Part shown: piece by piece, positions 32,422 through 62,829 of the stretch
Numbering within the stretch: position 1 is the stretch's first letter
Layout of the letters: each line of letters begins with the position of its first letter
NCBI GenBank assembly: GCA_016219345.1
Contig: JACRNE010000002.1
Coordinates: forward strand, 1-62,829
Direction of reading: 5' to 3'
DNA: 62,829 bases
Source: Candidatus Saccharimonadota bacterium
GTDB taxonomy: Bacteria > Patescibacteriota > Saccharimonadia > Saccharimonadales > 2-12-FULL-41-12
Notes under the pieces: generated by a model
Seen by the model: the letters and a program-made list of their open reading frames with translations, nothing else
What the model was told of the DNA's origin: nothing
Databases searched by the model: none
Position numbers and translations under genes: made by a program

Positions 32422-33954
32422 CTATTTTTCGAGCCTTAGTCGACTTATCAGCCAATCCCTGGGCAACATACTAAGAAACCAGCCGGCACGCGGACCAGAA
32501 CTTTTCCCTATTATCACCTTATACAAAACCTCAAAAAGTTCTTTTGGCTTTAAATCTATAGTGTCTTTAAAATCATAAATTGCTTTATGGAACCACTCAC
32601 CATCAGCTTCTGCTGGTGCTGACTGTATTTTTTCTGCCAATTCCTTTAGGTACTTCTTCTCTTCTTCATTGAATTCCGACTCTTCAATAGTATCTCTAAG
32701 ATCAAACTTAACGTCCTCGGGCGCCCATTTGTCTAGCCAGTTATCAATAAAATTCAGTTCATTTAAGATAATATCTTTTTGCATTGTGGCAGTGTCTTGA
32801 TGCTCTGTTCTGGCAATCACCTCTATAGTTTTTTCGGGATTTTTAAGCGTCGCCTGATAGCTGGCTACCAAATGCGTGAAAGGCACATTACTGACTGTCT
32901 GCTTATCAATCCCATAGGTACAAAGCTCTAATAAATGCTTTTCCTGTTCTGATTTATCCTGCTTAGCTACCAGCTCACTAAACTCATCAACCAGCCTCAT
33001 AAGAGTCGGACCTTCATCAAAGAATAGTTGCTTATCAGGCGATAGCTTAAGCAAGAAATACCAAACAACCTCAGGTGGTAAAACCTGTAATAGTTCAGCT
33101 GCCGTTATGGTATCTCCTGCGCTTTTACTCATCTTCTTTGTCTCACCTGAACGATTTATAAAATGATATGGGATTGGCAGGGGCGCTTTACCCCCAAAGA
33201 CTTTTTCAACGATTTGTTTCCCGGTATCGTATGATCCACCCTTTGTGGCATGATCCCTACCGAAAGGTTCAACGTCCACTCCTAGCAGCCACCATCTAGC
33301 AGCCCAATCAATTCGCCAGCTTAATTTAACTTCACCGTCTTTATAACTTGTTGACTGATCTTTACTGTCTTTGTCTTTATAGAAAACCTCTTTTTTGTCT
33401 TTATCAATGCTCACGAACTGACGATTTTTTAGATAGCCTTCTTCCATAATTTGCACCGGCGACCACTGTTTATCAAGCTCACGACCCGAAACATCCTCTA
33501 GAATTTTTCTAATTCCATCAATATTATCTAAGGCTTTTTCTATCGCCGGAACGAAGAACCCGCCCCTATATTCCTCATGTGCACGAACTACTTCCATCTC
33601 CAAGTTCATAGCTTTAGCGGCACTTAAAAGATCATTCAAGAAATAATCGGCATATGATTGATCCGAGCCATCAGGCGCGGGAATATCACATAGCGGCATA
33701 CCCAAATATTTACTAAATTCCTCTGGCACGCCTAAGGGAACTTTTCTAAAAACATCCAAATCATCGGCGACATGTATGTGCCTACTGTCTCGTCCGCGAC
33801 GCTTAATCTCACGAGCGATAACCTCAGCTGTCAGAACCTCGCGCAAAGTACCTAAATGATACGTCCCCGATGGCGAAACACCAGAGGAAACCACAATTTC
33901 GCCTTCAGGACGAAGAGCAATCACCTCATCTACAACCTTATTCAACCACTGCAT
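32422..33954 (-). CDS. lysK: lysine--tRNA ligase, class I (archaeal-type)
   Basis: SSGVSPSGTYHLGTLREV (HIGH-type), DDLDVFRKVP, and KMSKS; 510 aa. Confidence 0.9.
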   Translation of the reverse strand: MQWLNKVVDEVIALRPEGEIVVSSGVSPSGTYHLGTLREVLTAEVIAREIKRRGRDSRHIHVADDLDVFRKVPLGVPEEFSKYLGMPLCDIPAPDGSDQSYADYFLNDLLSAAKAMNLEMEVVRAHEEYRGGFFVPAIEKALDNIDGIRKILEDVSGRELDKQWSPVQIMEEGYLKNRQFVSIDKDKKEVFYKDKDSKDQSTSYKDGEVKLSWRIDWAARWWLLGVDVEPFGRDHATKGGSYDTGKQIVEKVFGGKAPLPIPYHFINRSGETKKMSKSAGDTITAAELLQVLPPEVVWYFLLKLSPDKQLFFDEGPTLMRLVDEFSELVAKQDKSEQEKHLLELCTYGIDKQTVSNVPFTHLVASYQATLKNPEKTIEVIARTEHQDTATMQKDIILNELNFIDNWLDKWAPEDVKFDLRDTIEESEFNEEEKKYLKELAEKIQSAPAEADGEWFHKAIYDFKDTIDLKPKELFEVLYKVIIGKSSGPRAGWFLSMLPRDWLISRLRLEK

Positions 33955-47249: not shown

Positions 47250-48937
47250 CTAAAGATGCGGTGATCGCGCAGAACCACAAATATTGGTGTTGGAGCAATT
47301 TGCTCCCGCGGACTGCGACGATGTATCGCCGCCGAGTATTATAACAAAGTCGGCGTAACCTGGCTGAATCGCACTATCAGGCAACGAAGTTGTAGCTAAT
47401 GTCTTAAATCTTAGTTCTAAATATCTCTTAGTGTATTTTTTTGCACCACTACGCATATCTACCAATACGGTTTTTGAGTAGTTTAGCGACGGAGCATTAT
47501 CTACAGATATTACGTTATAACCGTAGGATTTAAGTTCATCGGCTTTTTCTGTGGCAATTCCCGGACGTGAAGTTCCATTTAAAATTGCCACGCTCGGATT
47601 CTCCATCTTTAGGAAACTATCTTTCAAGGTATTTCTTATATAAAATTGAATATCTTTGTAGTTTCCTACTCCGGCTTTTGGAATCACAACAGACAGACCG
47701 CCTATATTGGCTGTTTTTACGTAATCATTTGGAGGATCAGCTAGACCGATTGAGACAATCTTCGAACTATCTATGCCCCTTGTTATCTCATACAACCTAT
47801 TAAGATCCTGGATGCTGAAGTTGGTCTGCACATGATTGCCGAAATTATCTAAAAGCTGTGAGATCTTAGCAGGGTTTGAAAACGTACCAAGCGAAAATAC
47901 TTTATCTTTTGTAGCAGCAATTATTAGTCTTTGTCTTTCAGACCTATCAAAATCACCACGTGCACTCGTATGCCTTGATCTTGCATATGCTAGCGCCTCA
48001 AAACCATCAAAATGTTTTTGTCCAGGCTTAACGTTGAGCGTGTAAGGTCTGCCATCTATGCGCATGGGTTCATAAACAGCTTTTGGTACATTCATATCAA
48101 TTCCACCAACCGTATCTATCGCCTGCTTAAACCCGGTAAAGTCCACCATGGCATGATAATGAACAGGTATGCCAAGCGTATCCTCGACAGTATTTTCAAT
48201 TAAATCAAATCCGGCGTTCTCTGCATCTTTTTTGGTTTGATCATTTATATTTTTAGACTTGTTCAAAACGGATGATTTACCGGTATAAAAGACGCTGTTA
48301 ATTTTCATAGAGCCTTCGCCGGGAACTTTTACATAAAGATCCCTCGGGATACTGACGAGCCCTGCTTCCTTTGCGATTGGATCTAACCACCCCGGCCTAA
48401 GAGTAGTACATTTATCCTGCCATCTCCTTCACCGCGCAAGCGTGATGGATCAACATTTTCATCAAGAGCTGCGGCTCCTCCACCACCTGACAGAACTTTA
48501 CGCAAGTTCAGATATCCCTTTGCAAATAAAAACCCAACAATCAATGCAATTATTAAAATTATTATCGCAGCGATCTTCAGACGTTTTTTTCTTTTTGCTT
48601 TACGCTTTTCATAATGATCAATTCCATCTAGGCGGCTGTTGTTTTTTTTCTTGAACAGAGAGAATTTTGATTTTTTCTTTGCGACTGGTCGTTCATATTT
48701 TGGTCGTTTAGGCATTTCAATCATTGGGTTCTGCGCTTGCCTAAAACCATCCGTCCCTCTAAATTCACCTATTCTGCCCTGTCCAGTTTGCGGCTTGGCA
48801 GAGCCTTGCGGTCTATAAGAGCTTGAACGCTTGAAATCAATGCTGCCACCAGCCCTAGAGCCGGTTGTGCGGCCTATGCTTATCCCGTCGATCGATGTTG
48901 GTGGTTTACGAAATTTTTTGTTTAGCTGGTCGTTCAT
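47250..48937 (-). pseudogene. disrupted LytR-CpsA-Psr (LCP) family cell-wall glycopolymer ligase, split into two ORFs
   Basis: ORF 48383-48937 holds the basic cytoplasmic tail, a TM helix and the start of the LCP domain (GEGDGRINVLLLGRGG then stop). The rest (LDPIAKEAGLVSIPRDLYVKVPGEGSMKINSVF..., then a LytR_C domain) continues in another frame through 47250. Confidence 0.6.
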
Positions 48938-49688: not shown

Positions 49689-50555
49689 TTAATCTGTTAT
49701 AAGTTTAGATATTCTTTTGAGCTCTTTTTCCGAGTTAAAAAATATCTGGACTCTTCCACCGCGGTTTGACCTGATTATAGCTACTTTGCTATCAAGTTTT
49801 TTACTAATCTTTTCGGTAGTTTTAATATCTTCCGGATTAGTGCGCGCAACCTTGCGTGATTCCTTTGATTTTTTATTCTTGACGTCATTTACAAATTTCT
49901 CAGCCTGCCTAACCGACCATTTGTCCTCTTCTATTAACTCGAGCAGTCTGGTCTGTTGATCTGGATGGTCTTTTAGTGCCAAGATTGACCTAGCATGACC
50001 TTCGGAAATATCACCTCTGGTTAGTGCATCCTTGGCATTGTCAGGTAATTGAAGGAGCCTGACTATGTTGGCAATCGTAGTGTTCGCCTTACCTAGTCTT
50101 TTTGCTATTTCGTCATAGCCCATACTAAATTGTTCGTGAAGTTTGGCTATTGAAACGGCTTGCTCTAACGGTGACAGATCTACCCTTTGCACATTTTCCA
50201 CCAATCCAATTTCCAGTCGATCCAGTTCTTCACTTGTTCTAACTAGCACCGGTAATTGATCTATGCCAGCTGACTTCGCTGCCCTGTATCTTCGCTCTCC
50301 AGCAATAATTATATATTTACCACCATTATCTGGAGTTACGACCAGGGGCTGTAGTATTCCGTGGCGTTTTATTGAAGATGCTAATTCGCTTAGAGCATCT
50401 TTGTCAAAATGCTTTCTTGGTTGCTCGGGATTGGGAGAAATGTCAGAAATGAACAACTTTTGTGTTCGGTCTTTTTTATCTATTAACAGAGATGTATCAA
50501 AGTCTTCTGGCAATAAACTACCAAATCCCCTGCCTAATCCTTTTTGTTTAGCCAT
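49689..50555 (-). CDS. parB: chromosome partitioning protein ParB/Spo0J
   Basis: KGLGRGFGSLLP, IIAGERRYRAAKSAG, and an HTH region. Confidence 0.93.
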   Translation of the reverse strand: MAKQKGLGRGFGSLLPEDFDTSLLIDKKDRTQKLFISDISPNPEQPRKHFDKDALSELASSIKRHGILQPLVVTPDNGGKYIIIAGERRYRAAKSAGIDQLPVLVRTSEELDRLEIGLVENVQRVDLSPLEQAVSIAKLHEQFSMGYDEIAKRLGKANTTIANIVRLLQLPDNAKDALTRGDISEGHARSILALKDHPDQQTRLLELIEEDKWSVRQAEKFVNDVKNKKSKESRKVARTNPEDIKTTEKISKKLDSKVAIIRSNRGGRVQIFFNSEKELKRISKLITD

Positions 50556-50559
50556 AGTA

Positions 50560-51351
50560 CTATTTTACCTCCTCAGTATCACTTTTGGGAATCTTTTCTG
50601 TCAGCTCTTTGGCAAGATTTTTGTAGGCCCTTGCCCCCTTACTCCATTTGTCGTGTTCAGATATTGGCTTTCCGAAACTAGGCGCTTCAGCCAATCGAAT
50701 ATTTCTTGGTATCACAGTTTTAAATAATTTATCTCCGAAATTTTCTTTTAGCTCACTGTAAACTTGCTCAGACAAACTAGTCCTTTTATCGAACATGGTT
50801 ACAGCTACCCCGAGTAATTCTAGGTTTGGGTTAAAGCTTCTTTTCACACTCTGCATAACTTGGAGTAACTGGCTCAATCCTTCAAGTGCATAGTATTCGG
50901 CCTGTACTGGGATCAGTACTAGATCCGATGCTACCAAAACATTTATGGTGAGTAGGCTTAGCGCCGGTGGACAGTCTATCAATATATAATCATAATACTC
51001 AAGCCCGCTAATCTTATTTTTTAGCATATGTTCACGATCTTGTTTGCCGGCTAAGTCAACTTCGGCACTCGCTAATCTAGGGTCTGCGGGTATCAAAAAT
51101 AGGTTTTTTAAATTTGTCTTTTGTACTACGGAACTAGCCTCTTGCCCTGAAAGTAGTACGTCGCACAATGTTTTAGCATGCTCCCGCTTAGTAAGGCCAA
51201 GGCCACTTGTGGTATTACTCTGGGGATCCGCATCAACCAACAGGACTTTTTTACCTTGCTTTGATAAATAGGCGCCAAGATTTATGGTAGTAGTAGTTTT
51301 GCCTACCCCGCCCTTTTGATTCAAAATAGCAATTATTTTTGTTTGTTCCAC
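50560..51351 (-). CDS. parA: chromosome partitioning ATPase ParA/Soj (GTG start)
   Basis: Deviant Walker A NQKGGVGKTTTT; SD AGAGGGA lies 5 nt upstream of the GTG. Confidence 0.95.
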   Translation of the reverse strand: MEQTKIIAILNQKGGVGKTTTTINLGAYLSKQGKKVLLVDADPQSNTTSGLGLTKREHAKTLCDVLLSGQEASSVVQKTNLKNLFLIPADPRLASAEVDLAGKQDREHMLKNKISGLEYYDYILIDCPPALSLLTINVLVASDLVLIPVQAEYYALEGLSQLLQVMQSVKRSFNPNLELLGVAVTMFDKRTSLSEQVYSELKENFGDKLFKTVIPRNIRLAEAPSFGKPISEHDKWSKGARAYKNLAKELTEKIPKSDTEEVK

Positions 51352-51411: not shown

Positions 51412-52251
51412 TCAATTAAGGTTATTGATATAGCTAATAACTGATGTCTCAGATACTTTATTTTGTGTTCTTATAAACACCAATAGATCAAATTTCTTAA
51501 ATATTATGGTCTCGGGACCTTCCTCCGTTTCCTTTATGTACGCTAGTCCGCTACCTGTTTGAATAATTTTTGTTGCTTCAAAGCCCTTTGCCAACTCTTC
51601 TAGCTTAGCCTCTGGATCAGACTTAAAATCTTCCGGTAATGACTGCTGGCTCACGGCAATAGCTATCCCATCTATGCTGTCATCGAATTTAGCAAAGTTA
51701 CGCTCTGGGTTATAAGATACTTCTTCTTTATTGATTCCACTCGGTGGAAGCGCCGGACTAAAAGGCGGGTCATGTGAAACCGGCTCTTCTTTTACCTGGC
51801 TTGTTGTCGCAGTTTGTTCTGCGCTAGGAGCGTTATCCTTATTATCTCTGTTGATCAACAGGAATGACGCAGCCCCTACAATAAACACAATGAAGCCAAT
51901 AATAAGATAGGTCTTCGGATTTTTTAGAAAGTTAAATGAAAAATTTTTCTTATAATTTAATAGTCTGTTTTTTAACTTTTTAAGAAAATCCCAGTGTGCT
52001 TCTGGTAGGGAAAGTTTTATATTAACTTCGACTCGCTTTTTGTCTTCGTCACTTGCTAAGTCATAAGGCTCGTTAATGTTGCCAAATAACGAACCTTTGC
52101 TACTATGTCTTATATCTTTTTCTGATTGTTTTTTTACCTTGTCCCTTAACTCGCGCCACTCGGGATCATCGTATATAGTCTCTACTTTTTGGTTAGAATT
52201 TTCCTCAAAGAACTTTGGGGACTTTTTTTTCTTAGGATTTATAAACTCCAC
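51412..52251 (-). CDS. hypothetical single-pass membrane protein
   Basis: 279 aa; charged N-terminal region, TM helix YLIIGFIVFIVGAASFLLI, extracytoplasmic C-domain. Confidence 0.5.
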   Translation of the reverse strand: MEFINPKKKKSPKFFEENSNQKVETIYDDPEWRELRDKVKKQSEKDIRHSSKGSLFGNINEPYDLASDEDKKRVEVNIKLSLPEAHWDFLKKLKNRLLNYKKNFSFNFLKNPKTYLIIGFIVFIVGAASFLLINRDNKDNAPSAEQTATTSQVKEEPVSHDPPFSPALPPSGINKEEVSYNPERNFAKFDDSIDGIAIAVSQQSLPEDFKSDPEAKLEELAKGFEATKIIQTGSGLAYIKETEEGPETIIFKKFDLLVFIRTQNKVSETSVISYINNLN

Positions 52252-52265
52252 CTAAATTTCCTGAC

Positions 52266-54164
52266 TTATATGACGATGAAAAATCTATTTATTGATGTGG
52301 TATTACCTGCAAAATCCGTGACGGTTAAAGTGTAATTTCTTAAACCTGAGGGGAGCCTGCTTCTATTAGCTGACCAGCTACAATTACCTCCCGTACAACT
52401 CAGTGAAATACCTCCGTCTTGGCTACTGAGACTTGTGGAGCCTGAAGAAAGCACAACAGAGTGAACCCCAGATATACTATCAGATGCACTGCCACTTATC
52501 GTCCTGCCTAGGAATCGTAAAATCAGCTGGTTGCCGCTGAAGTTACTCGTGGGCAAAGTCTTGTCTATTGATAGTTGTATTGATCCAGTAGAACAATTTC
52601 CAGCAGGATCACATGATTGTCCGGATGTAAAAGTATTAATTCCTTCAGTGCTAGCAACTGTGGCTGAGGGCACATTTGGGCTACCCGATGATGGCGCAGG
52701 ATCATTTGATTCCCAGTTTATAGTAACGTCTGCGTTATACCACCCAAAACTATTAGCAGCCCTATCTGGCGTGCCTGTCACTACAGGTGGAGTTACATCA
52801 TCATTTAAAGGAGGTGCTGTACTCGAAACAAACACATTTGCACAATTTATTAAATTTTGAGCGATTGCTGAAGCAGAAAGAGAAGCAAATTGGGGCTCTA
52901 CATATGAACATGCGGGAGGAACTCCAAAGTTTGATGCCCTGTTGGAAAAAGCAGCTAATTGACCATTGGCACTTATTGAAAGAGAGCCCGCTTCGTTAAT
53001 GTCTGGCGCTAAATCATCCTGGTTATATCCAAAAAAATGATATTCCAATGTATTGGTGTCTAAAAAGACAAGACCGGTTTCACTATTACTCGTTGGGAAA
53101 ATAGCCGAATTACCATCTCTGGAGAACGATAACTCATTAAAATCAGCGCTTCTAAATATATCTGCTTGACCTATGGATATTCTTAGTTGTTTTGTCATTC
53201 CAGAATTTAAATCTCTCCTGTAGACACACCCCCTGAACTCACATTCGCCTGGTGTGGTTGAAAGCATATTTGGATCATGAGACTCAAAATAAGCATATCT
53301 GCCATCACCAGACAGATAACTGCCCACATTGTACCAGTAATCACTATTGACACCCGTCTGGGTAACATCAATACGTTGCGTGTTCTGTGTCTGGGAATCA
53401 AACAACTCAACAATTTGATATCCAAAGCTATTTTGTCTTTGATATAGAATCTTAGTTCCATCAGAGGACAATCCCTTATTAATGCCCTCGGCTATCTCTT
53501 GTGAGCTGCCTGCTGCCATGTCTCTTATGTATGTTTTCGGGAATCCTCCAGACTCTGAAAGAGTAATTGCAAACTTATTACCGTCATACGATGAATCAAT
53601 GGGGAAATCAGATCCAATTAAATTATTATTATCGTCAAAAGACACTACAGACGTTTGTCCCAATAAAGAATCATGTCTGAACTGGTATATAGTACCGCTG
53701 GTACGTGGATCAATGTTAGTAGAATAATGTACTGCGAAAAACACATACCTTCCGTCTCCACTCAAACCCGTTAGTCTTAGACCCTGACCATCCTGCGGCA
53801 TACCGTCTGAATTCACAGATACCATCTTAGTTGTATCCGCTCCTCTATCCCTTAGATAGATTTGTTCAGTATTTGTTGTTTGGCTACTTAGGTTCGTTGC
53901 CTGTGATAGAAAAGCGACATACCTGCCATCGTCTGACATTAACGTATCGCCACTATCATCATTTGTAAACTGCCCTTCTGTGGATTGTGAAATTAGTTCA
54001 GGATAGTAGTTCTGAGCATGCACCTTTGAAGTATCAAAAGGTGCCGTTTGTATTATTAGTGATAGGAATAAAACAGTTAAGACAATCTGTATTTTAATCC
54101 CAGTATTTCTATATATATTTTTCACCCTTTGAAACTCCCTCTTATGTACTAATAATTTTAGCAT
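52266..54164 (-). CDS. exported protein with TolB/PD40-like beta-propeller repeats and a C-terminal Ig-like region
   Basis: Signal/anchor helix. Recurrent S-x-DG-x-Y/F-hydrophobic motif about 7 times (SDDGRYVAFLS, SGDGRYVFFA, SYDGNKFAIT, SSDGTKILYQ, SGDGRYAYFE, SRDGNSAIFP, SANGQLAAFS). Confidence 0.65.
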   Translation of the reverse strand: MLKLLVHKREFQRVKNIYRNTGIKIQIVLTVLFLSLIIQTAPFDTSKVHAQNYYPELISQSTEGQFTNDDSGDTLMSDDGRYVAFLSQATNLSSQTTNTEQIYLRDRGADTTKMVSVNSDGMPQDGQGLRLTGLSGDGRYVFFAVHYSTNIDPRTSGTIYQFRHDSLLGQTSVVSFDDNNNLIGSDFPIDSSYDGNKFAITLSESGGFPKTYIRDMAAGSSQEIAEGINKGLSSDGTKILYQRQNSFGYQIVELFDSQTQNTQRIDVTQTGVNSDYWYNVGSYLSGDGRYAYFESHDPNMLSTTPGECEFRGCVYRRDLNSGMTKQLRISIGQADIFRSADFNELSFSRDGNSAIFPTSNSETGLVFLDTNTLEYHFFGYNQDDLAPDINEAGSLSISANGQLAAFSNRASNFGVPPACSYVEPQFASLSASAIAQNLINCANVFVSSTAPPLNDDVTPPVVTGTPDRAANSFGWYNADVTINWESNDPAPSSGSPNVPSATVASTEGINTFTSGQSCDPAGNCSTGSIQLSIDKTLPTSNFSGNQLILRFLGRTISGSASDSISGVHSVVLSSGSTSLSSQDGGISLSCTGGNCSWSANRSRLPSGLRNYTLTVTDFAGNTTSINRFFIVI

Positions 54165-54204
54165 GGTGAGAATAAAGTTTTTTGTTTAGAAAGATCAATA
54201 AATC

Positions 54205-57200
54205 CTAAGGTAGAGGGCAGTTGGGGTAGTTGGATTGGCGGCATGGGGTGTCGAGTGGTTGTTGCTGACCACCAATAAAGGTTTTACCATGAATCAATCT
54301 CTTTCCTGGATCACTAGTAAATACGAAGGATAGATCTGTTATAGTCGGACCCCTAGATACATCTTCAGGGAAGCCCCAAGCATTTTGGCTGTCTATAGTT
54401 AAATTCAGGAAGAAATAGCGTGCACAACTAGTGTTACTACCTGATCCATCTTTTGGTGTGTAAGTTGAAGGTACCCCAAGAGAAACAGCTCCAGCATTTG
54501 TATTCTGACCCCAAGTTGTCATCGATGCGCACGAACTGCCAGCACCGCTGGTTGCTGATTTATAATTCAGATACCATCTGGCACCGTCGGCATTATCCAG
54601 ACCGTTAGCTACAAACATTGATGGAAATACATCTGTGTCTGCGTCGATCGCTAATGAATAGTTCGCTATGTGAGGCTGGAATTGCAAAGTAGCATGAACT
54701 ACCCTGTTAGCCCCTGTGAATGCCGCTCCGGTGCAATCGTAACCACCCAGCATGTATGCTCTGCCTCCGTTATACGCAACTGTTGGAGCATATCTAGCGG
54801 TAGTAAATCTAACATTTGTTTGCGACCAATAACCCAAAGATCCGTTAGCATTAATCGGTATAACGTAGGTGTTATTTGTGCAAGTAGTAGAGGCCGAACG
54901 TCCACCAAATATATATAAGAAGCCATTACTGGCAAAACCATCACCTTGCCTTATACGCTGAGGCAGCTTTTCTGTTGCTGACCAGGAGCCAATCGTACCA
55001 TCGCTAGCTATAGCTGCGTATTGAGCGTCAAGAAGATAGTTAGTTCCATCAAACCCGCCTAATATATAGAGGAAACTGCCATATGCAATAGCCACGTGGC
55101 CACTACGTGCAGTGGTAAAGGCTGTCATACCGGTGCTAGTCCAAGCTGAGCCAATATCGCCTCCGCTTGACAGAGATGGACTAGCATAGATTACATTTGA
55201 AGCGGCACTTGAACCATCGTTACCGCCAGTCACATAAATTCGATTATTCCAGACCGTGGAGCTATGCATGGTTCTACCAGCTGGTAGTCCGTTAGTGGCA
55301 CTTGCCCAAGTACTAATATCTCCGTTACTAGCGGGGGTCCCATAGTAAACATCTGTAACTCCAGCAGTCGATCCAGAAGTTTGACCGCCAATAAAGTAAA
55401 GTGTGCCACCGACTACCTCCATCTGTCCATGAGCCCGCACTGCGGGCAGCGTACTGTCTGTAGTATTTGCCCAGGTGCCTACGGTTCCATCATCGTTAAG
55501 TAGTGCAAACTGCGTATTATCAGTTGCGGTTGTACAGTCTGTGCCAGTTGTACAACCTCCAGCTATGTATAAATAGCCGTTATGTACGGCGGATGCAGCA
55601 GCATATCTATCGGTTGCAAATGTATTACCGCTCGAAGTAAATGATGCCGGTGAAGCACTATAGTTGTTATAAACTTGCACTTTTTCATTAACACCACTTT
55701 GGGCACTACAGCTTCCCGGCGGAGCACCAGACGTACAGCCACCAACTATATAAATATAGCCATTGGCAGCTGCTGCTCCTTCATTCCAGCGAGCCGTAAT
55801 GGTAACTGTTGAGGTCGTGAACGTGTTAAGTTCTCCCGTAGTTTGATCGATCTTGGCATATTGAATATCGCTTAAAGTGCTTGGGCCACTACCATCATGA
55901 CCGCCTATCACGTATATGTAGCCATTCACTCCAACAGCAACTCCGCGCCGCCTTAAGCTGCCCCCCAGATCTGAAGTTGTATCCCAGCCCCCAGTGGCAT
56001 TCCCATTGTCTGCCCTAACTATATTTCCACTAGAATTAATCGTGGCAAAAAATACTGTACGCGTTTGGGCATCACCGCTCTCGTTGGCACCACCAGCTAG
56101 GTAAATATACCCCGCGTAGTATATACCGGCCATCAATCCCAACCCTTCAGTCAGCTGTAGTTGGTTAGTTATAGCGCAGCTACTAGTTGCTCCGTCCGAA
56201 TGAGCAATATCACATTTATAAACGGTGCTTATGTAGTTTGAACAACCGATGCCGGTCCCACCAGTCCAACAACCACCAATAATGTATAGATTACCTGCAG
56301 TAGCACTATTTGATCTAGTGATAACATACATATGCCCATAGCCGTTGACTGGTGCACCGGTGTCAACATCTGGTAATACATCAGCTTGATTTGTCCAACT
56401 TCCCAGAGAGCCATCACTATTAAAAGAAGCTCTGAAAATATTGCGTACATAGTCAGTACCATTGGCACCTCCAACCACATATACATAGTTGTTGTATACA
56501 GAAACACCAGCGGCACCGATGCCCGTCGTACCGTTAAGCGTATCCGTGCTGTCAACGGTCCAAGAGCCTATGGATCCATCAGCATTTATCGGGGCATACC
56601 CTGTGTTATCACTCATGGTTGTGCATCCATTGTTAGCACAACCACCGATATTATAGATGTAACCATTATTTATAACTACGCCCATTGCTGTACGCCCAAC
56701 CTGCCCGGCACCAGCTCCAATTGTCGGCTGAGAGTTCTCAGTTTCTATAGGACCTATATCCCCATCATTATTGATGCGACCATAGAAAGTAGTCTCAAGT
56801 GTTGTAGTGGAGTTAGTGCAATTATCCGTTGTCATGCCACTACATCCACCTATCTGATAAATCGTGTTCCTCCAACCGACCAGTCCGTAACCAACTTTTG
56901 TTGTTGTTACTCCTGACACTGAAGTCCAGTCTGTTATGGATCCATCTGCGTTAATACTAGCTAGTTTAAGAGTATCGCTCGCAATAACAGTACTACAGTT
57001 AGTGGCCGTTAGTGCACTACATCCCCCAGTAACGTACATATACCCTCCCCAGATGGTTGCAAAAGAACCACCAAAAGTCATGCGCGCGCTAGGAAGAGCC
57101 GTAGTCGTTACCCAGGAGCTGGCCAGGCTCCCAGTGCTAGTGATCTTTATATAGCTGACTCCTGTTTGTGCAGTTGTGCCATTGGCGCCACCGACCACAT

Positions 57201-58830
57201 ATAAGTAGCCGTTGTACTGGGCAGACGAGTGTCCCCACCTGGCTGAAGCAAGCGCAGTCATGCCGGTGGTAGACCAAGCGCCCAAACTACCGTCTGGATT
57301 AATATCTGCATACTCAACGGTTGTGACACCCCCGGTAGCGGCATTTGTCTGCCCACCCATTAGGTACATTCTGTTGTTATACGCAATCGCCGAGGAATGA
57401 CTTCTCTCTGTACTCAGAGCACTACTTGAATCAAGAGTCCAGCTAATCGGTTCTCCATTCGCTCCAATCTTGGCATAATAAACATTAGTTGAACGCGCGC
57501 CGCCGCTGTCTTTACCGCCCATTACATATAGATAGCCATTGTATGCTGCCACACTCATAGAATCTCTCGCCGCTGGCAGGTCATAGGCAGTTCCTGTACA
57601 CCAATTCGTACAAGCTCCCGCTCCTGGGTTCGGCGCAGTTAGCGTGTAATTTGATGGGTCAAACTTCGCCCAATAGACATTGCTAACTCTGGTGGAACCA
57701 CTGTTACCTCCAATCACATAGACATATCCCCCCGCTACAACTGTGCCGTGATTCCATCTATCGGCTGGTAATGATGTAGTCCCAGTCCAGCTAGGAATTC
57801 GGGCGCCCGTAACAACACCTTTTTGGATAAGTTCGTTGGTAACATCGAAATCAACATTAGACTCATTATTACCGCGCATAAATTTTTGAGCTGTTTCTAC
57901 ATAAACGCTAGGGTCAATGCTCAAAGGATAACTAGCAGTTTTCATATTTTCTGCAACCACTTTTAGGTTGTTGCCATTTAACTCATAGTGAATTTTTACT
58001 TGTGAAGCCGTTTTATTTGTTTCTTTAACTACGGGAGCCGGTATGGTAAATAATAATTTGGTTTTATCGGCTTTTTCTCTAGCTTTTTGGAGTAGCGCTG
58101 CATCCTTGTCGCTACCCGTTGCTACATCGCCATTCAGAGGCAATTCTGAACCATATACCCCTATAGAACCGTCTTTTTCTAGCTTAGTTTCAAGGCCATC
58201 TTCAAGCTTTATCTCATATTCATACTCTACCCTGTCTCTGTTATATTTCTCTAAGACTATATCCTCCTTGACTCCCGTAGCTTGAGAAGTATAGACTAAA
58301 TATCCAAGATTTTGTTTAAGCTTATAGAACACTTGATTTTCTTGTTGCTTACCCTCTTGCAGCCTAAATTTAGGTATTAGTTGAAAATCTAGATCATTAA
58401 TAGGATCTTTAACTATCATGCCTTTTTGGGGATCCTTACTCAAAGAAGCAACTATCCGCGGACTGCCCGTATTTTCTGCCTTAACGTCTGAGTCCTGCTC
58501 TGGGCTATATGAAGAATTGTACTCAAAGCTATTTTTGCTTTGATCATATTTTAATAGTTCGGAAAACTTCTTGCTTGTTTTTGGTAGTAGATCTATTGCA
58601 CCTTGACTGAGCTGGTGCGGCTTTTCGTTTATAAAAGGCTGGAAAGCAGCTATTAGAACAGTTGCTATAATTAATATTGCAATAAAACCCGAATAGAGTC
58701 TAAACATCAAAGATTTTTTAGGCTTTGTCATCTCTAGGCTTTTTACGGTCAATCTGCCCATACGTTTTGCAGCTGCCCTTGAGGCCAATAAAGCTCTTGT
58801 ATTAGTTCTTTTTAGTTTTATATCATCCAT
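54205..58830 (-). CDS. giant N-terminally anchored surface protein with about 18 Kelch-type blades (three predicted 6-bladed propellers)
   Basis: 1541 aa; TM helix FIAILIIATVLIAAF near the N-terminus. I count 18 occurrences of the blade signature (N)GY[ILV]Y[VI]xGG ... DG[ST][IL]G[ST]W. Confidence 0.8.
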   Translation of the reverse strand: MDDIKLKRTNTRALLASRAAAKRMGRLTVKSLEMTKPKKSLMFRLYSGFIAILIIATVLIAAFQPFINEKPHQLSQGAIDLLPKTSKKFSELLKYDQSKNSFEYNSSYSPEQDSDVKAENTGSPRIVASLSKDPQKGMIVKDPINDLDFQLIPKFRLQEGKQQENQVFYKLKQNLGYLVYTSQATGVKEDIVLEKYNRDRVEYEYEIKLEDGLETKLEKDGSIGVYGSELPLNGDVATGSDKDAALLQKAREKADKTKLLFTIPAPVVKETNKTASQVKIHYELNGNNLKVVAENMKTASYPLSIDPSVYVETAQKFMRGNNESNVDFDVTNELIQKGVVTGARIPSWTGTTSLPADRWNHGTVVAGGYVYVIGGNSGSTRVSNVYWAKFDPSNYTLTAPNPGAGACTNWCTGTAYDLPAARDSMSVAAYNGYLYVMGGKDSGGARSTNVYYAKIGANGEPISWTLDSSSALSTERSHSSAIAYNNRMYLMGGQTNAATGGVTTVEYADINPDGSLGAWSTTGMTALASARWGHSSAQYNGYLYVVGGANGTTAQTGVSYIKITSTGSLASSWVTTTALPSARMTFGGSFATIWGGYMYVTGGCSALTATNCSTVIASDTLKLASINADGSITDWTSVSGVTTTKVGYGLVGWRNTIYQIGGCSGMTTDNCTNSTTTLETTFYGRINNDGDIGPIETENSQPTIGAGAGQVGRTAMGVVINNGYIYNIGGCANNGCTTMSDNTGYAPINADGSIGSWTVDSTDTLNGTTGIGAAGVSVYNNYVYVVGGANGTDYVRNIFRASFNSDGSLGSWTNQADVLPDVDTGAPVNGYGHMYVITRSNSATAGNLYIIGGCWTGGTGIGCSNYISTVYKCDIAHSDGATSSCAITNQLQLTEGLGLMAGIYYAGYIYLAGGANESGDAQTRTVFFATINSSGNIVRADNGNATGGWDTTSDLGGSLRRRGVAVGVNGYIYVIGGHDGSGPSTLSDIQYAKIDQTTGELNTFTTSTVTITARWNEGAAAANGYIYIVGGCTSGAPPGSCSAQSGVNEKVQVYNNYSASPASFTSSGNTFATDRYAAASAVHNGYLYIAGGCTTGTDCTTATDNTQFALLNDDGTVGTWANTTDSTLPAVRAHGQMEVVGGTLYFIGGQTSGSTAGVTDVYYGTPASNGDISTWASATNGLPAGRTMHSSTVWNNRIYVTGGNDGSSAASNVIYASPSLSSGGDIGSAWTSTGMTAFTTARSGHVAIAYGSFLYILGGFDGTNYLLDAQYAAIASDGTIGSWSATEKLPQRIRQGDGFASNGFLYIFGGRSASTTCTNNTYVIPINANGSLGYWSQTNVRFTTARYAPTVAYNGGRAYMLGGYDCTGAAFTGANRVVHATLQFQPHIANYSLAIDADTDVFPSMFVANGLDNADGARWYLNYKSATSGAGSSCASMTTWGQNTNAGAVSLGVPSTYTPKDGSGSNTSCARYFFLNLTIDSQNAWGFPEDVSRGPTITDLSFVFTSDPGKRLIHGKTFIGGQQQPLDTPCRQSNYPNCPLP

Positions 58831-58831
58831 T

Positions 58832-58993
58832 CTACATATCCATAATCTGCGAATCGCTTATTATTTGCTCAATCAGACCAGCCTGTTTCTTCAACTTGTA
58901 ACGAGAAAGTTTTCTCCGCTGAGGGCGGACAACTTCGTAGATAAGGCTGTTGGCTGTCATTTCTCTGGTTAGTGGTAATTTATCGTTTTTCAT
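58832..58993 (-). CDS. possible 53-aa basic small protein between the two giant genes (below the track cutoff)
   Basis: My translation gives MKNDKLPLTREMTANSLIYEVVRPQRRKLSRYKLKKQAGLIEQIISDSQIMDM. Its stop TAG lies 1 nt before the ATG of the 1541-aa gene. No homology evidence. Confidence 0.25.
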   Translation of the reverse strand: MKNDKLPLTREMTANSLIYEVVRPQRRKLSRYKLKKQAGLIEQIISDSQIMDM

Positions 58994-59001
58994 AATTTGC
59001 C

Positions 59002-62000
59002 TTATTGATTCGTATACGTGAAGTCCAGATTCTCTACATAAACATTTCCGCTACTCTTCGCGGTTACATTAATCTTGAATATTACATAGTCCCCGCCAAC
59101 AAATCCGCATGCAGTTTCGTCTCCACCAAAGGAAGTTTGTTGCCAGGTATTAGCTGTGTTATTTATGGTGGTCGCACTTCCGCAGGAGACAATAGTGCCA
59201 CCTCCAACATTCTTCCTAAAGACCTGCAACGTTGCATTGGCGTTTGTAGTGCTATCGGTCAATGCGGTTAACTTGATAGTGTTAGCGTCATTAAATCCAC
59301 TGAACGTGGAAGGCAGCTTGTATGTAACATATATTCCGTAAGTCTGATCAGTACCTTGAGGTGAAGTCCATTTATAGAAGTTTCGTGCTTCACCACTAGC
59401 ACAAAGGGTGCCGACGACCAAAACACTTGCCTGATTCGAACAAAAGTCCGCAGTCAAGGTTCCGACACCCGTGCCATTTAATACCGCTCCGGTATATTCT
59501 GGGGTAAGCGTAATAATGTTGTTGGGGGCAGATCCGCAAGCGCCCCATGCCGCTGTGCCGTTACGATTTTCGTAACACTGTAATTTTCCTTGAGTAGAAT
59601 CATAGTACATTGAACCAAGATATGCAGTCTGGCCGGTTCCGAACGGAGCACTAGCAGCAGCATCTAGCTGGAATACAGTGGTTGATGTGCCAGTTCCCGT
59701 GCTATTACCTATCTTTACTTTATTAACAGAAGTTGTATCTACGCTGAACATTGTGTCAGCACTGCTAGCACTCTGTACCTGGAAGGCTGTAGCTGAGTTC
59801 GTCGAGCTCTTAATTGTAGCCTTGCCGGTCGTGACAAATTCACCACCAACAGATAAGCCATTAGCTATGTCGGCACCACCAGCAACCTGCAAATAACCGA
59901 CTATGTTAGTGTTACCAGCAGTTAAACTACCCCCTGAGCCATTTCCATCAGCACCATTGCTATTTGAATAGCTTGTAAGATCAAGGTTTCCACCAAATTT
60001 TATGCGTTGAGTCGAAGTGTAATAAACCGTATTAGCGTAGTTTGCGTTATTTGTAAACGCTCCAGATATACCGCCAGGTGCGTAAATGTAGCCATTATAC
60101 ATGGCTCCTCCACCAAAGGAGTATCTATTTGCCGGCAATGAGCTTGCTGCATTTGTCCAAGCGCCCAAAGTTCCGTCAGTATTTAGTCTTGAGTATTCAA
60201 CGCTTGCATATGCAGTTGCACCATCTGTTCCAGTTGCGCCACCAATAGCATATACGTAGCCGTTTGATACAGCAGCACCGTGAAAAAACCTCGACGTATT
60301 AAGGTTAGAGTCACTGTCGGTAGACCATGCTGCTGTACCGGTTGAAGGATCAGCATTGATTCGTGCATAATAAGTAGCAGCATAAGATGTAGCTCCGTTA
60401 CCACCACCATAAACATATAGATATCCATTTGCTGACACTGCGCCAATACCATAACGGACAGCTGGTAGTAAGTCTGATTCTGTGGACCATGAACTAATCG
60501 TACCGTCAGCATTTGGTCTCGCATAGAATATTTCATCTTGCGAGTTTGTATTATCTGATCCACCTATTAGATATATGTATCCGTTTGCAGAAGTAACTGC
60601 AGCATCCCATCGTCTGTCACCTGCTACCGATCCAAGATCAGCTGTTGTAGCCCAAGACCCAACAGATCCGTCAGCATTAAGCTTAGCATATCTAACAGTC
60701 CTTAGTGCGTTTACGTTATCTGTTGTTCCACCAATTACATACAAATAACCATTAACGACTATGGCTGAGTGTCTACCAAGAGCAGCTGGAAGTGGGTTAC
60801 TGGCTGAAGTCCAGCTGTCTAAGGTGCCGTCCGTTTTTATTTTCGCGTAACGTATAGTAGTTTGGAAGCCAGGTGTTGGTGATCCTGAGTAACCACCTAT
60901 TATATAGATATATCCGTTGTGAGTTACAGTCGCATGAGCACCCAAAGTAATGCTGCTTGGTATGGCAGTTGTGGTTGCCCAAGCCTGAAGCTCAGGGCTA
61001 TTGTTTCCACCAATTGTAATTACATTGTTTACACCAGAGATAGAGTTATCAACACTGAAGTAAGTAGCAGTTCCTGCAGCATTCTGTATCTGGAAGGCTG
61101 TAGTTGAACCTGTAGATCCACCAGACTTAACAGTTACACCAGCGCTTCCGCCCTGAATTGTGGTGTTGCTAGTCAATGCAGTTGAACCAACAGTTACTAA
61201 GTTAGATCCCGATCCCGTTGGCGTACCAGTACCTATGTTTATGGTCTTACCGCCAGCTACAGTTGTGTTGCCTGTTCCTATATTAAGAGTGTCTATTCCA
61301 ACTGTGTTGCTGCCTGTTCCGAAGTTAAGAGTTCTAGCTGCATCGGCCGCAACGTTACCTATGTCTATTTGAGTAACGCGATCATTGTTACCCATTAGCA
61401 GTGAGGCTGTACCATTGGTACCAGCTGCTCCTGAGAGGATATTAACTATGGTAGAGCTAGAAGCATTAGACATACTACCGTTACCAATGCTTATGGTTTG
61501 AGTAGAACTGGCTCCAGGGGTAGCGCTACCAATGCTAATGGTATTTGTAGCAGTAGATTGACCTATTGTTATCTGGCCAGTTGTGCCAGTGCCGCCGATG
61601 ACAGTTGTCCCAGCGACTGCTGCAGTGTTGATAGCGACGTTATTATTGCTAACTGTTCCTATATTGATGGTGCCACTAGCACCTGCTTGGATGTTTACTG
61701 CGCTAGAGCCGGTGCCGCCCTGAATGGTGGTTTGAGTAGCCGCAGTGGTATTACCTATTCCAACAGTTGTGGCATTAGTGAAACCTAGTCTTACTGTTCC
61801 AGCGCCCGTGGTATCTAGATCTAGAGTATTTGTACCAGTTGCTCGGATGTTTAAGCTGCCTGGGTTAGTTATTGTGGCACCAGCGGCACCAAGGTTGATA
61901 GTGCTGGCTGCACCGAAGGCATTGATGGTGGTGGCGGTAGTATTAAAGACGCTGAATGTAGTTGACGCTGTGTAGACTCCAGGAGAAGTTGAGTTAACAC

Positions 62001-62829
62001 CGAATATAGTTGTTGGAACACCACCATTCACTACCCCCACAGTAAAGGCATTGGTTGAGGTAAATCCATCTGATGACTGAATAGCAAATCCGGCATTTGC
62101 GCCAACAGCTAGTAGGTTTAGGTTATTCTCATCTTTAAGCTGGAAGATATCTGCAGTTTGAGCAGTTGTTCCTTGTATGACTGCACCTACGCTACCCGCA
62201 GAGGCTGACTTTATATTAAAGTTGGCATTTGTCTGCTGGGTTGTAGCATTCTGTATATAGTTACCTGTAGAAAATGCTACGTTTCCTGCAACTCTCCAGT
62301 ATCCAGGTGAAGCAGCATCATAAACCAAAGTTATGCTGCCACCTGCAGCCAGAGTTATGTTAGCTCCAGTACCTGTGATAATCTGGTTACCTGCGCTGGA
62401 GCTACCGGAGTTGTTGGATATTGTTGCGCTTTGGCTGGCTGCATTAACAATAGTCAGGATTTCCCCATCCCTGCCATTTGCTATGCCGGTTATTGTCTGT
62501 GCAGATGCACCTGTTAGACGTACCAGTGATACTTCGCCAAAGTTAACATTATTAGATGATCCAGTGGTGGAGAAGTCCGTCCCTCGCTTAAACGCAGCAG
62601 ATCCTGTAAGGTCAAAATTAGCTCCCACATCAAGACTATCATCTGTCTTCAAAGTATTGTTTGCAGACCTATAAAGATTTGTATCTGTACCGAAGGTTAT
62701 TCCACCAGCTGCAGTGGTAGTATTTGTTCCTATAGTTAATAAGCTGTTTGCTGGAGTTGCACCTATACCAACCATACTGTTAGTGGTGTCTGCTATAAAT
62801 AAGTTGCTAGTTCCAGCCGCATTTTGAAT
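59002..62829 (-). CDS. giant surface protein, 5'-truncated by the window edge: G/T/N/A-rich beta-helix-like repeats, 6 Kelch blades, and a C-terminal Cys-containing domain
   Basis: The track ORF starts at Met 62775, but the frame stays open to nt 62829 (IQNAAGTSNLFIADTTNSMVGIGATP...). Kelch blades lie at about 60000-60985 (GYIYIIGG, GYLYVIGG, GYIYLIGG, GYLYVYGG, GYVYAIGG, GYIYAPGG). Confidence 0.8.
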   Translation of the reverse strand: MQNAAGTSNLFIADTTNSMVGIGATPANSLLTIGTNTTTAAGGITFGTDTNLYRSANNTLKTDDSLDVGANFDLTGSAAFKRGTDFSTTGSSNNVNFGEVSLVRLTGASAQTITGIANGRDGEILTIVNAASQSATISNNSGSSSAGNQIITGTGANITLAAGGSITLVYDAASPGYWRVAGNVAFSTGNYIQNATTQQTNANFNIKSASAGSVGAVIQGTTAQTADIFQLKDENNLNLLAVGANAGFAIQSSDGFTSTNAFTVGVVNGGVPTTIFGVNSTSPGVYTASTTFSVFNTTATTINAFGAASTINLGAAGATITNPGSLNIRATGTNTLDLDTTGAGTVRLGFTNATTVGIGNTTAATQTTIQGGTGSSAVNIQAGASGTINIGTVSNNNVAINTAAVAGTTVIGGTGTTGQITIGQSTATNTISIGSATPGASSTQTISIGNGSMSNASSSTIVNILSGAAGTNGTASLLMGNNDRVTQIDIGNVAADAARTLNFGTGSNTVGIDTLNIGTGNTTVAGGKTINIGTGTPTGSGSNLVTVGSTALTSNTTIQGGSAGVTVKSGGSTGSTTAFQIQNAAGTATYFSVDNSISGVNNVITIGGNNSPELQAWATTTAIPSSITLGAHATVTHNGYIYIIGGYSGSPTPGFQTTIRYAKIKTDGTLDSWTSASNPLPAALGRHSAIVVNGYLYVIGGTTDNVNALRTVRYAKLNADGSVGSWATTADLGSVAGDRRWDAAVTSANGYIYLIGGSDNTNSQDEIFYARPNADGTISSWSTESDLLPAVRYGIGAVSANGYLYVYGGGNGATSYAATYYARINADPSTGTAAWSTDSDSNLNTSRFFHGAAVSNGYVYAIGGATGTDGATAYASVEYSRLNTDGTLGAWTNAASSLPANRYSFGGGAMYNGYIYAPGGISGAFTNNANYANTVYYTSTQRIKFGGNLDLTSYSNSNGADGNGSGGSLTAGNTNIVGYLQVAGGADIANGLSVGGEFVTTGKATIKSSTNSATAFQVQSASSADTMFSVDTTSVNKVKIGNSTGTGTSTTVFQLDAAASAPFGTGQTAYLGSMYYDSTQGKLQCYENRNGTAAWGACGSAPNNIITLTPEYTGAVLNGTGVGTLTADFCSNQASVLVVGTLCASGEARNFYKWTSPQGTDQTYGIYVTYKLPSTFSGFNDANTIKLTALTDSTTNANATLQVFRKNVGGGTIVSCGSATTINNTANTWQQTSFGGDETACGFVGGDYVIFKINVTAKSSGNVYVENLDFTYTNQ

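Follow-up and report, generated by a model that had tools for sequence, protein, structure and literature searches.

A three-gene cassette built around a giant Kelch membrane protein is conserved across Saccharibacteria

The question of how ultrasmall Patescibacteria recognize and hold their bacterial hosts is largely unanswered; the structures implicated so far are limited to type IV pili and a few adhesins, known solely from cultured oral strains. The present work concerns a minus-strand locus at positions 51412 to 62829 of contig JACRNE010000002.1, from a Candidatus Saccharimonadota bacterium (assembly GCA_016219345.1). The contig was analyzed over its entire length of 62,829 nt and is referred to as the window; it stops within the first gene of the locus. 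In the direction of transcription, the locus carries a gene for a fibre protein, a 53-aa open reading frame (ORF), a gene for a 1541-aa protein that we call the Kelch giant, a gene for a 632-aa exported protein and a gene for a 279-aa small membrane protein, followed by parA and parB. Fibre, Kelch giant and small membrane protein are collectively called the trio.

Several surface adhesins with glycan-binding domains are needed by Saccharibacteria for epibiotic growth, and the essential adhesins SEML1_0890, SEML1_0891 and SEML1_0315 of Southlakia epibionticum carry VCBS, dockerin and FN3 domains (PMC10633639). Host binding by TM7x, in turn, uses a β-propeller-bearing pilin: PilX2 is a minor pilin with a seven-bladed RCC1-type propeller, encoded in a type IV pilus locus (PMC11623550). 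These adhesins and PilX2 come from the same phylum as the locus described here and likewise place non-enzymatic lectin or propeller domains on the surface of the epibiont. However, neither shows the architecture of the trio, and no pilus genes adjoin the cassette.

With the Kelch propellers of KLHL/Keap1 and bacterial NanM, the locus shares the blade signature, apparently the six-blade period, and significant Pfam and PDB alignments. In contrast to them, its blades are predicted to be extracellular, the giant appears to hold three tandem propellers behind a membrane anchor together with two family-specific flanking domains, disulfide-type GGC-x-C loops are present, and the proteins have neither a BTB/BACK domain nor a mutarotase-like NCBIfam match. 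A loose analogy exists with the WxL/Csc clusters of Firmicutes, which are multi-gene operons of secreted or membrane-anchored proteins only, without enzymes. A gene with a sub-threshold WxLIP_PGBD match precedes the trio in about half of Saccharibacteria, but no WxL, DUF916/WxLIP or LPXTG element was found in the window with Pfam, and the locus does not belong to this class. Kelch giants are not known to be part of Csc clusters.

The Klebsiella K2-2 tailspike protein (8iqe), Kp7 gp52 (7xyc) and carbohydrate-binding module (CBM) families 30, 61, 22 and 4 share with the fibre a jelly roll of one fold class, placed at the end of a fibre body. This likeness is at the level of the fold only (10-18% identity), and the fibre family differs in carrying a Sec signal, seen in its complete homologues, in being chromosomal without phage neighbors and in lacking any PHROG match. 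Finally, the 632-aa protein recalls exoproteins of the PD40/TolB type ('Tol biopolymer transport system component') in its seven SxDGRYVAF-type repeats and in homologues that carry PD40 and Ig-like domains. It falls below the PD40 threshold itself, however, and there is no sign of a Tol-Pal system in the window. Full-text literature searches returned no paper linking Saccharibacteria or TM7x with Kelch and none describing the trio, which belongs to a known category, the bacterial surface-protein operon, and is in content an undescribed cassette with several domains that match neither Pfam nor PDB.

The conserved unit of the locus

Species-representative genomes were scanned with the N-terminal domain of the Kelch giant, giving 92 confirmed stretches (80 loci fetched), and with its C-terminal domain, giving 134 stretches; neighboring domains were mapped with jackhmmer on all ORFs of the fetched loci. 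Nearly all stretches of the giant family are labelled Saccharibacteria or Patescibacteria. In 69 of 72 testable loci the gene immediately upstream of the giant, on its strand, carries the fibre's C-terminal domain (median gap 55 nt), and in 62 of 66 the gene immediately downstream encodes a homologue of the 279-aa protein (median gap 20 nt); this order is kept in differing surrounding contexts. The core unit is a three-gene cassette, running from fibre via Kelch giant to small membrane protein, and it is kept in well over a hundred species. A parA gene follows the cassette in only 5 of 61 testable loci, so that the parAB adjacency seen in the window is incidental, a local rearrangement without functional meaning. 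A functional link between cassette and parAB was rejected on this count.

The three cassette genes of the window are those of the fibre (59002-62829, at least 1275 aa, its frame open up to the contig end and its 5' end missing), the Kelch giant (54205-58830) and the bitopic small membrane protein (51412-52251). The basic 53-aa ORF (58832-58993) and the gene for the 632-aa protein (52266-54164), which has PD40-type and Ig-like regions, are accessory. All of these genes are on the minus strand, as is every gene and domain of the window located below, and parA (50560-51351) and parB (49689-50555), identified with Pfam, are context outside the cassette. An earlier note on this DNA, made from the sequence alone, had described five co-directional ORFs ahead of parAB, and this arrangement is borne out by the ORF list and Pfam. 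The note gave gaps of 8-60 nt; from the fibre gene through parA they measure 8, 1, 40, 14 and 60 nt, one being shorter than had been stated. It had also treated the five genes upstream of parAB as the unit. The unit is the three-gene cassette instead: joint, non-random conservation holds for three of the five. The other two, the PD40 gene and the 53-aa ORF, are specific to the lineage, as is the adjacency to parAB. A scan of the coding strand revealed no terminator-like sites between the locus genes, promoter-like sites did not exceed the shuffled expectation (25 found versus 29.5 expected) and there are no tandem DNA repeats of note.

The closest relatives indicate which parts of the locus change. 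Locus L082, a Logan contig (ParA 80%, ParB 85% identity), carries a truncated fibre gene followed by genes for 53, 1541, 619 and 270 aa, parA and parB, which is the order of the window. In L002 and L083 (ParA 73%), the fibre, Kelch giant and small membrane protein genes and parAB are present, and the PD40 gene and the 53-aa ORF are absent. The Kelch giant is 82% identical to its orthologue in L082, 77% in L002 and 52% in L058; the corresponding values for L002 are 73% for ParA, 66% for ParB and 40% for the small membrane protein. The L002 fibre is complete at 1761 aa and has no Kelch insert, and tblastn aligns only the last ~316 residues (74%) of the window fibre with it, apart from scattered repeat matches. 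By these comparisons the Kelch giant is as conserved as ParA and ParB, and the fibre body is swapped between close relatives. In L022, the Kelch and small-membrane genes occur together at ~7 kb from parA. Exact-sequence look-ups of the window's 1541-aa and 619-aa proteins gave no match.

In about 35-40 of the 80 loci, corresponding to about half of the species, the trio forms the tail of a longer co-directional cluster (L102, L110, L125, L159, L106 and ~30 further loci), which occupies 1-9.7 kb upstream of the Kelch giant. It holds two or three paralogous secreted proteins of ~370 aa, a ~333-aa protein with a signal peptide, a C-terminal transmembrane/Arg tail and a sub-threshold WxLIP_PGBD match (E=0.005, 17.2 bits versus a cut-off of 27.3), and a ~320-aa membrane protein for which Ig-like matches to Glucodextran_B/PKD were obtained. 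Next, on the opposite strand, come two small bitopic genes. The longer cluster, which is absent from the window's nearest complete relatives L083 and L084, strengthens the view of the trio as part of surface-structure biology.

Domain architecture of the trio

Pfam matches above the gathering cut-offs were obtained for the 1541-aa giant with Kelch_KLHDC2_KLHL20_DRC7 (PF24681, E=3.6e-44) and Kelch_1 (E=1.8e-27) and for the 1275-aa fibre with Kelch_6 (E=8.6e-16). PDB sequence searches with these two largest proteins matched Kelch entries only, with full-length alignments to six-bladed Kelch domains. Counting by the h-h-x-h-GG motif plus direct reading yields 18 blades in the giant and six in the fibre. 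These are the numbers the earlier note had given, and the profile (hidden Markov model) searches strongly confirm the blades as Kelch.

The giant begins with a Lys/Arg-rich tail of ~40 aa and continues with a signal-anchor helix at residues ~40-69 (58624-58713), located by a Kyte-Doolittle scan and direct reading; its predicted topology is N-in, C-out (type II). Residues ~70-345 (57796-58623) make up a family-specific β-rich domain, delimited with an AlphaFold2 (AF2) model (predicted local distance difference test (pLDDT) 80.5, predicted template-modelling score (pTM) 0.77) and a homologue alignment. Those of its 26 homologues that have a named source are all from Saccharibacteria or Patescibacteria, and it has no Pfam model. 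Foldseek returned only weak matches for this domain, to GH92/GH98 chains (E at least 1.5e-3, template-modelling (TM) score at most 0.35). Three of the N-domain homologues (P0244, P0246 and P0263) have a long glycine-rich region after the first Kelch blade, and P0244 and P0263 also carry a precomputed Pfam PF21722 match; domains are therefore shuffled in the giant too.

The 18 Kelch blades occupy residues ~346-1378 (54697-57795), as delimited by Pfam, PDB and motif counts, and we read them as three six-bladed propellers. These three and the propeller of the fibre are mutually 27-36% identical. Across the family, size ranges from ~1500 to 2535 aa and the median motif count is 19 blades. All 22 cysteines of the window giant are paired, and six blades carry a GGC-x(4-9)-C loop directly after the Kelch GG doublet; such pairs fit an oxidizing, extracytoplasmic location of the protein. 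The C-terminal domain (~160 aa, 54208-54696, defined by homologue alignment) ends in ...DPGKRLIHGKTFIGGQQQPLDTP, and the family end reads ...KRLxHGxTFxGGxQQPLDTP. It is the best conserved part of the family, with 47-87% identity in 14 of 16 aligned homologues and 28-30% in the two outliers, and it gave no Pfam match at permissive thresholds and no PDB sequence match. The idea that it is the same docking module as the C-domain of the fibre was rejected (hhalign probability 0.1%). The window giant carries an extra 11-aa tail, CRQSNYPNCPLP, with two cysteines, encoded by the last 11 codons (54208-54240); it runs past the usual family end (...QQPLDTP[F/Y]) and is absent in the 16 aligned homologues.

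The fibre body consists of Thr/Gly/Ser/Asn/Ala-rich repeats, these five residues accounting for 60% of the protein. Complete homologues start with an N-terminal Sec signal followed by a conserved 'TLNFQARL...' domain, fibre length across species loci varies from 862 to 2786 aa, and some other members of the family contain CBM_4_9. A six-bladed Kelch propeller is inserted at residues ~612-945 (59995-60996) of the window fibre, as judged from Pfam Kelch_6/Kelch_1, from PDB Kelch matches that span residues 611-946 and from the six GG blade motifs in this region. None of the 69 fibre genes adjoining Kelch giants in other species contains this insert. The fibre propeller is only 31-34% identical to those of the giant, so that it is not a recent copy of them.

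The last ~210 residues of the fibre (59005-59664) form the conserved C-terminal domain of the family, which alignment, AF2 and Foldseek indicate to be a β-sandwich (jelly roll). It has 140 database homologues, and no Pfam model covers it, either in the window copy (E up to 10) or in those homologues. The alignment contains 21 invariant columns, three of them cysteine, and three conserved cysteine pairs. The AF2 model, built from an 80-sequence alignment, has a mean pLDDT of 81.6, with most 10-residue blocks at or above 80 from residue ~60 onward. Its top Foldseek matches in PDB are CBM30, CBM61, CBM22 and CBM4 (E 5e-6 to 7e-4); C-terminal domains of Klebsiella phage tailspikes and fibres (overall E 5e-6 to 1e-3) and viral fibre proteins in BFVD, including those of giant viruses, are matched as well. 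According to this model, the domain has a CBM-type β-sandwich fold, and by sequence it is not a member of a CBM family. Most database matches to the fibre C-domain and to the giant's N-domain sit on contigs of 1-4 kb, and the L082 contig, like the window's at 62829, also breaks within the fibre gene, at its position 1. It seems that short-read assemblies break at the fibre and Kelch genes, owing to repeats or to variation between strains.

The small membrane protein has a charged N-tail of ~110 aa, a transmembrane helix at residues 112-136 (51844-51918; Kyte-Doolittle scan) and a conserved domain of ~145 aa that is predicted to face outward. Its family comprises 1046 cluster representatives at E ≤1e-3, with no Pfam match at permissive thresholds and no PDB match. 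Four paralogues surround parA in L043 (5561-9945), on both strands, indicating that this family can expand independently of the Kelch giant.

Proposed function and alternatives

We propose, at a probability of roughly 55%, that the trio is a non-enzymatic surface-binding complex in which the Kelch giant would provide a conserved platform at the membrane and the fibre would act as an exchangeable binder, probably of a polysaccharide or other glycan. The three genes would be co-transcribed. In the envelope, the giant would join with the small membrane protein in a conserved platform tethered to the membrane, and the secreted fibre, attached to this platform or to the wall via one of its conserved ends, would present variable binding modules outward, in this lineage including the extra Kelch propeller. 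Ligands of the whole assembly may be polysaccharides or proteins, displayed either by a partner cell or by the organism's own wall. Gene structure, domain content, export signals, synteny counts and relative conservation are shown by the data; it is complex formation, the type of ligand and a role in host contact that we infer here, the host attachment or recognition suggested in the earlier note among them.

Sequence features support export or anchoring of proteins of the locus. The signal peptide of the 632-aa protein, the signal-anchor helices, the close-paired cysteines and the Sec signal on complete fibre homologues agree with the note in calling the locus one of exported proteins. The three large proteins have an even number of cysteines, mostly close-paired, and the 279-aa and 53-aa proteins have none. 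The further statement that every visible N-terminus bears a signal or anchor helix holds for the 632-aa and 1541-aa proteins only: the 53-aa protein has no such helix, that of the 279-aa protein is internal and the N-terminus of the fibre lies off the contig. As the note had also observed, no enzymatic domain is recognizable in any of the five proteins, whether with Pfam (permissive thresholds included), NCBIfam or PHROGs. The NCBIfam scan gave two weak, unrelated matches, BamI (E=5e-4, score 19.4 versus a cut-off of 370) and CHU_0125_OmpA (E=5e-4), and no match to a mutarotase or oxidase. Every fold that can be recognized in the locus is of the binding or scaffold type.

Two more specific candidates were rejected. 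For a surface protein diversified by a diversity-generating retroelement, no template/variable repeat pair was detected (there are only two weak repeat families, of 62-74% identity, which reflect blade and fibre motifs), and no reverse transcriptase occurs among the annotated ORFs of the window. A type IV pilus tip adhesin of the PilY1/PilX2 kind does not accord with the long basic tail preceding the helix and with the lack of a prepilin motif. Among the scanned conserved neighbor families of the window and the 80 related loci, there was no pilus-related Pfam match.

Several observations weigh against a surface-binding complex of the proposed type. The high cross-species conservation of the giant and of the fibre C-domain would not be expected of a receptor following a range of hosts; a conserved interaction partner, possibly the wall of the organism itself, accounts for it better. 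Kelch does not occur in the supplementary annotation tables for the genetically tractable Southlakia epibionticum. One or more cultured lineages that attach to hosts may therefore lack the cassette, which may not be a general requirement for attachment. The jelly-roll matches are at fold level only (TM 0.3-0.58 on the target, 10-18% identity) and do not by themselves establish sugar binding, and the division of the giant's blades into three times six is drawn from blade counts and Pfam and PDB alignments. A host-range receptor, on the other side, is favored by the shuffling of fibre modules between relatives and by the precedent of lectin adhesins and a propeller pilin. Carried to its full extent, this would make the trio a widely conserved host-contact organelle, in which a triple-propeller platform and its small partner dock exchangeable, phage-fibre-like receptor-binding fibres; we consider this doubtful. 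If true, the range of bacteria open to attachment would depend on the exchangeable modules (Kelch, CBM_4_9 and others), and the trio would be a main determinant of host range and a cellular counterpart of the phage baseplate-plus-fibre system.

The same conservation bears on a structural, envelope-organizing role, in which the cassette would shape or protect the Saccharibacterial envelope, be it as a scaffold directed at the cell itself, as a coat resembling an S-layer or as a frame that binds wall glycopolymers. We regard such a role as rather unlikely, although the Kelch giant and its C-domain are conserved like housekeeping genes (for the giant, 77-82% identity to relatives), a wall polymer of the same cell could be the target of the fibre's CBM-like end, the neighbors in this clade include signal peptidase I, an LCP ligase and an HtrA-like protease, and the cassette may be absent from the host-attaching Southlakia. 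Neither SLH nor any other S-layer or anchoring domain was found in the five proteins with Pfam or NCBIfam, however, and a fibre body that is swapped between close relatives and bears modules of the lectin type (Kelch and CBM_4_9, for example) would be more usual in binders that face outward. A role in nutrient capture or catalysis, with propellers and jelly roll binding or modifying sugars for uptake, Kelch acting as a mutarotase or oxidase and the CBM tethering the substrate, appears improbable. Some bacterial Kelch proteins are indeed enzymes (NanM/YjhT, galactose oxidase) and Saccharibacteria depend on scavenged sugars, but the resemblance of the giant's N-domain to the glycosidases GH92/GH98 is weak, mutarotase- or oxidase-like matches, glycoside hydrolases and other catalytic domains are missing from the five proteins, and the cassette contains no transporter genes.

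It could further be argued that there is no functional unit at all and that genes for large surface proteins merely accumulate near parAB in a variable region, given that different large fibre genes lie upstream of parA in different Saccharibacteria, that the PD40 gene and the 53-aa ORF are present in some relatives and absent from others and that linkage to parAB is rare. For the three core genes this is largely refuted by an order kept in 69 of 72 and 62 of 66 loci, across varied contexts and with gaps of tens of nt, and we deem it very improbable. Least probable of all the explanations is a domesticated phage tail-fibre module or prophage remnant. The jelly roll does match C-terminal domains of phage tailspikes, tail fibres and giant-virus fibres, and the fibre repeats may be reminiscent of tail fibres. 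Yet no named PHROG family was hit (the 279-aa protein weakly matches a family without function, E=8.4e-4, and the other four proteins match none), the flanking ORFs belong only to housekeeping families with no phage gene among them by Pfam, complete fibre homologues carry a Sec signal and the chromosomal position is stable across more than 100 species.

The cassette is large, taking up 6-15 kb or about 1% of a genome of ~1 Mb, and encodes putative surface proteins throughout. The giant's N- and C-domains, the small-membrane family with its more than 1000 clusters and, at the sequence level, the jelly roll of the fibre match neither Pfam nor PDB. The pairing of a conserved Kelch platform with a modular fibre offers a concrete hypothesis for host-range determination or envelope construction, and in a group with few candidates of this kind the cassette is one that can be tested for a part in envelope or host-contact biology. 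As its genes seem to break short-read assemblies, they would be under-represented in surveys based on metagenome-assembled genomes (MAGs).

Accessory genes and genomic context

Besides the trio, the window locus contains two accessory genes which, together with the Kelch insert of the fibre, are lineage-specific; the PD40 gene and the 53-aa ORF are recent additions to the operon. A hydrophobic segment at residues 20-45 of the 632-aa protein, with a VHA|Q cleavage-like site, constitutes its signal peptide; the database call of this gene begins 13 codons downstream and gives 619 aa. The protein contains seven degenerate PD40-type blades (~52845-53987), recognized by reading the repeat motif S-x-[DN]-G-x-x-h-x-[FYI], and a C-terminal Ig-like region (~52269-52832) with weak Big_13 and Big_3_2 Pfam matches. 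About seven PD40-like blades had been noted before. The seven repeats are present and 36 of 38 aligned sequences match Pfam PD40, and the 632-aa protein itself stays below the threshold (E=4.2). It has no PDB sequence match, singly or as a profile. The gene was found only in the window genome and its closest relative, L082, and a genome scan with the protein yielded a single match, to an unrelated Planctomycete Ig-domain protein.

The 53-aa ORF encodes a basic protein with the conserved motif YEVVRPQRRKLSRYKLKKQA and ends 1 nt ahead of the start codon of the giant. It has no hydrophobic segment by Kyte-Doolittle scan and no family match in Pfam, NCBIfam or PHROGs. It recurs, always directly after a fibre gene, in L082 (85% identity) and in L005 and L029 (57-67%), and for this reason it is a real small gene; L002 and L083 lack it.

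The rest of the window is filled by housekeeping genes identified with Pfam, among them those for SecA, CTP synthase, several aminoacyl-tRNA synthetases, RF1, PrmC, L31, S2 and EF-Ts, together with the envelope-biogenesis genes for signal peptidase I, an LCP ligase, an HtrA-like protease and an S41 protease. No tRNA, rRNA or other Rfam element was found in the 62.8 kb. Of the 80 best ParA matches in species-representative genomes, nearly all bear a Saccharibacteria or Saccharimonadales label, with identities of up to 73%. These MAGs and the housekeeping content are in line with the reduced-genome, host-dependent bacterium that the earlier note had supposed. A few ParA-match records are labelled Limnocylindria, Binatia, Verrucomicrobiia or Balneolia; with genes and gene order identical to the rest, they are read as mis-binned contigs.

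The minus strand carries nearly all genes of the window, and the last of the 2-kb windows is the only one without a negative GC skew. GC content is 0.45-0.465 at 54001-58000 and 60001-62000, over the Kelch and fibre genes, versus 0.39-0.43 in most other 2-kb windows; this rise tracks their Gly/Ala/Thr-rich composition and need not imply a foreign origin. The LCP (LytR-CpsA-Psr) gene at 47250-48937 is split into two ORFs of 184 and 352 aa by a frame change near 48383-48386. The two jointly match the single 583-aa LCP protein of L082 (68% and 88% identity), and the split could reflect a pseudogene, a sequencing error or a genuine frameshift. The lysyl-tRNA synthetase at 32422-33954 is of class I (Pfam tRNA-synt_1f), a type that is common in archaea and restricted to some bacteria.

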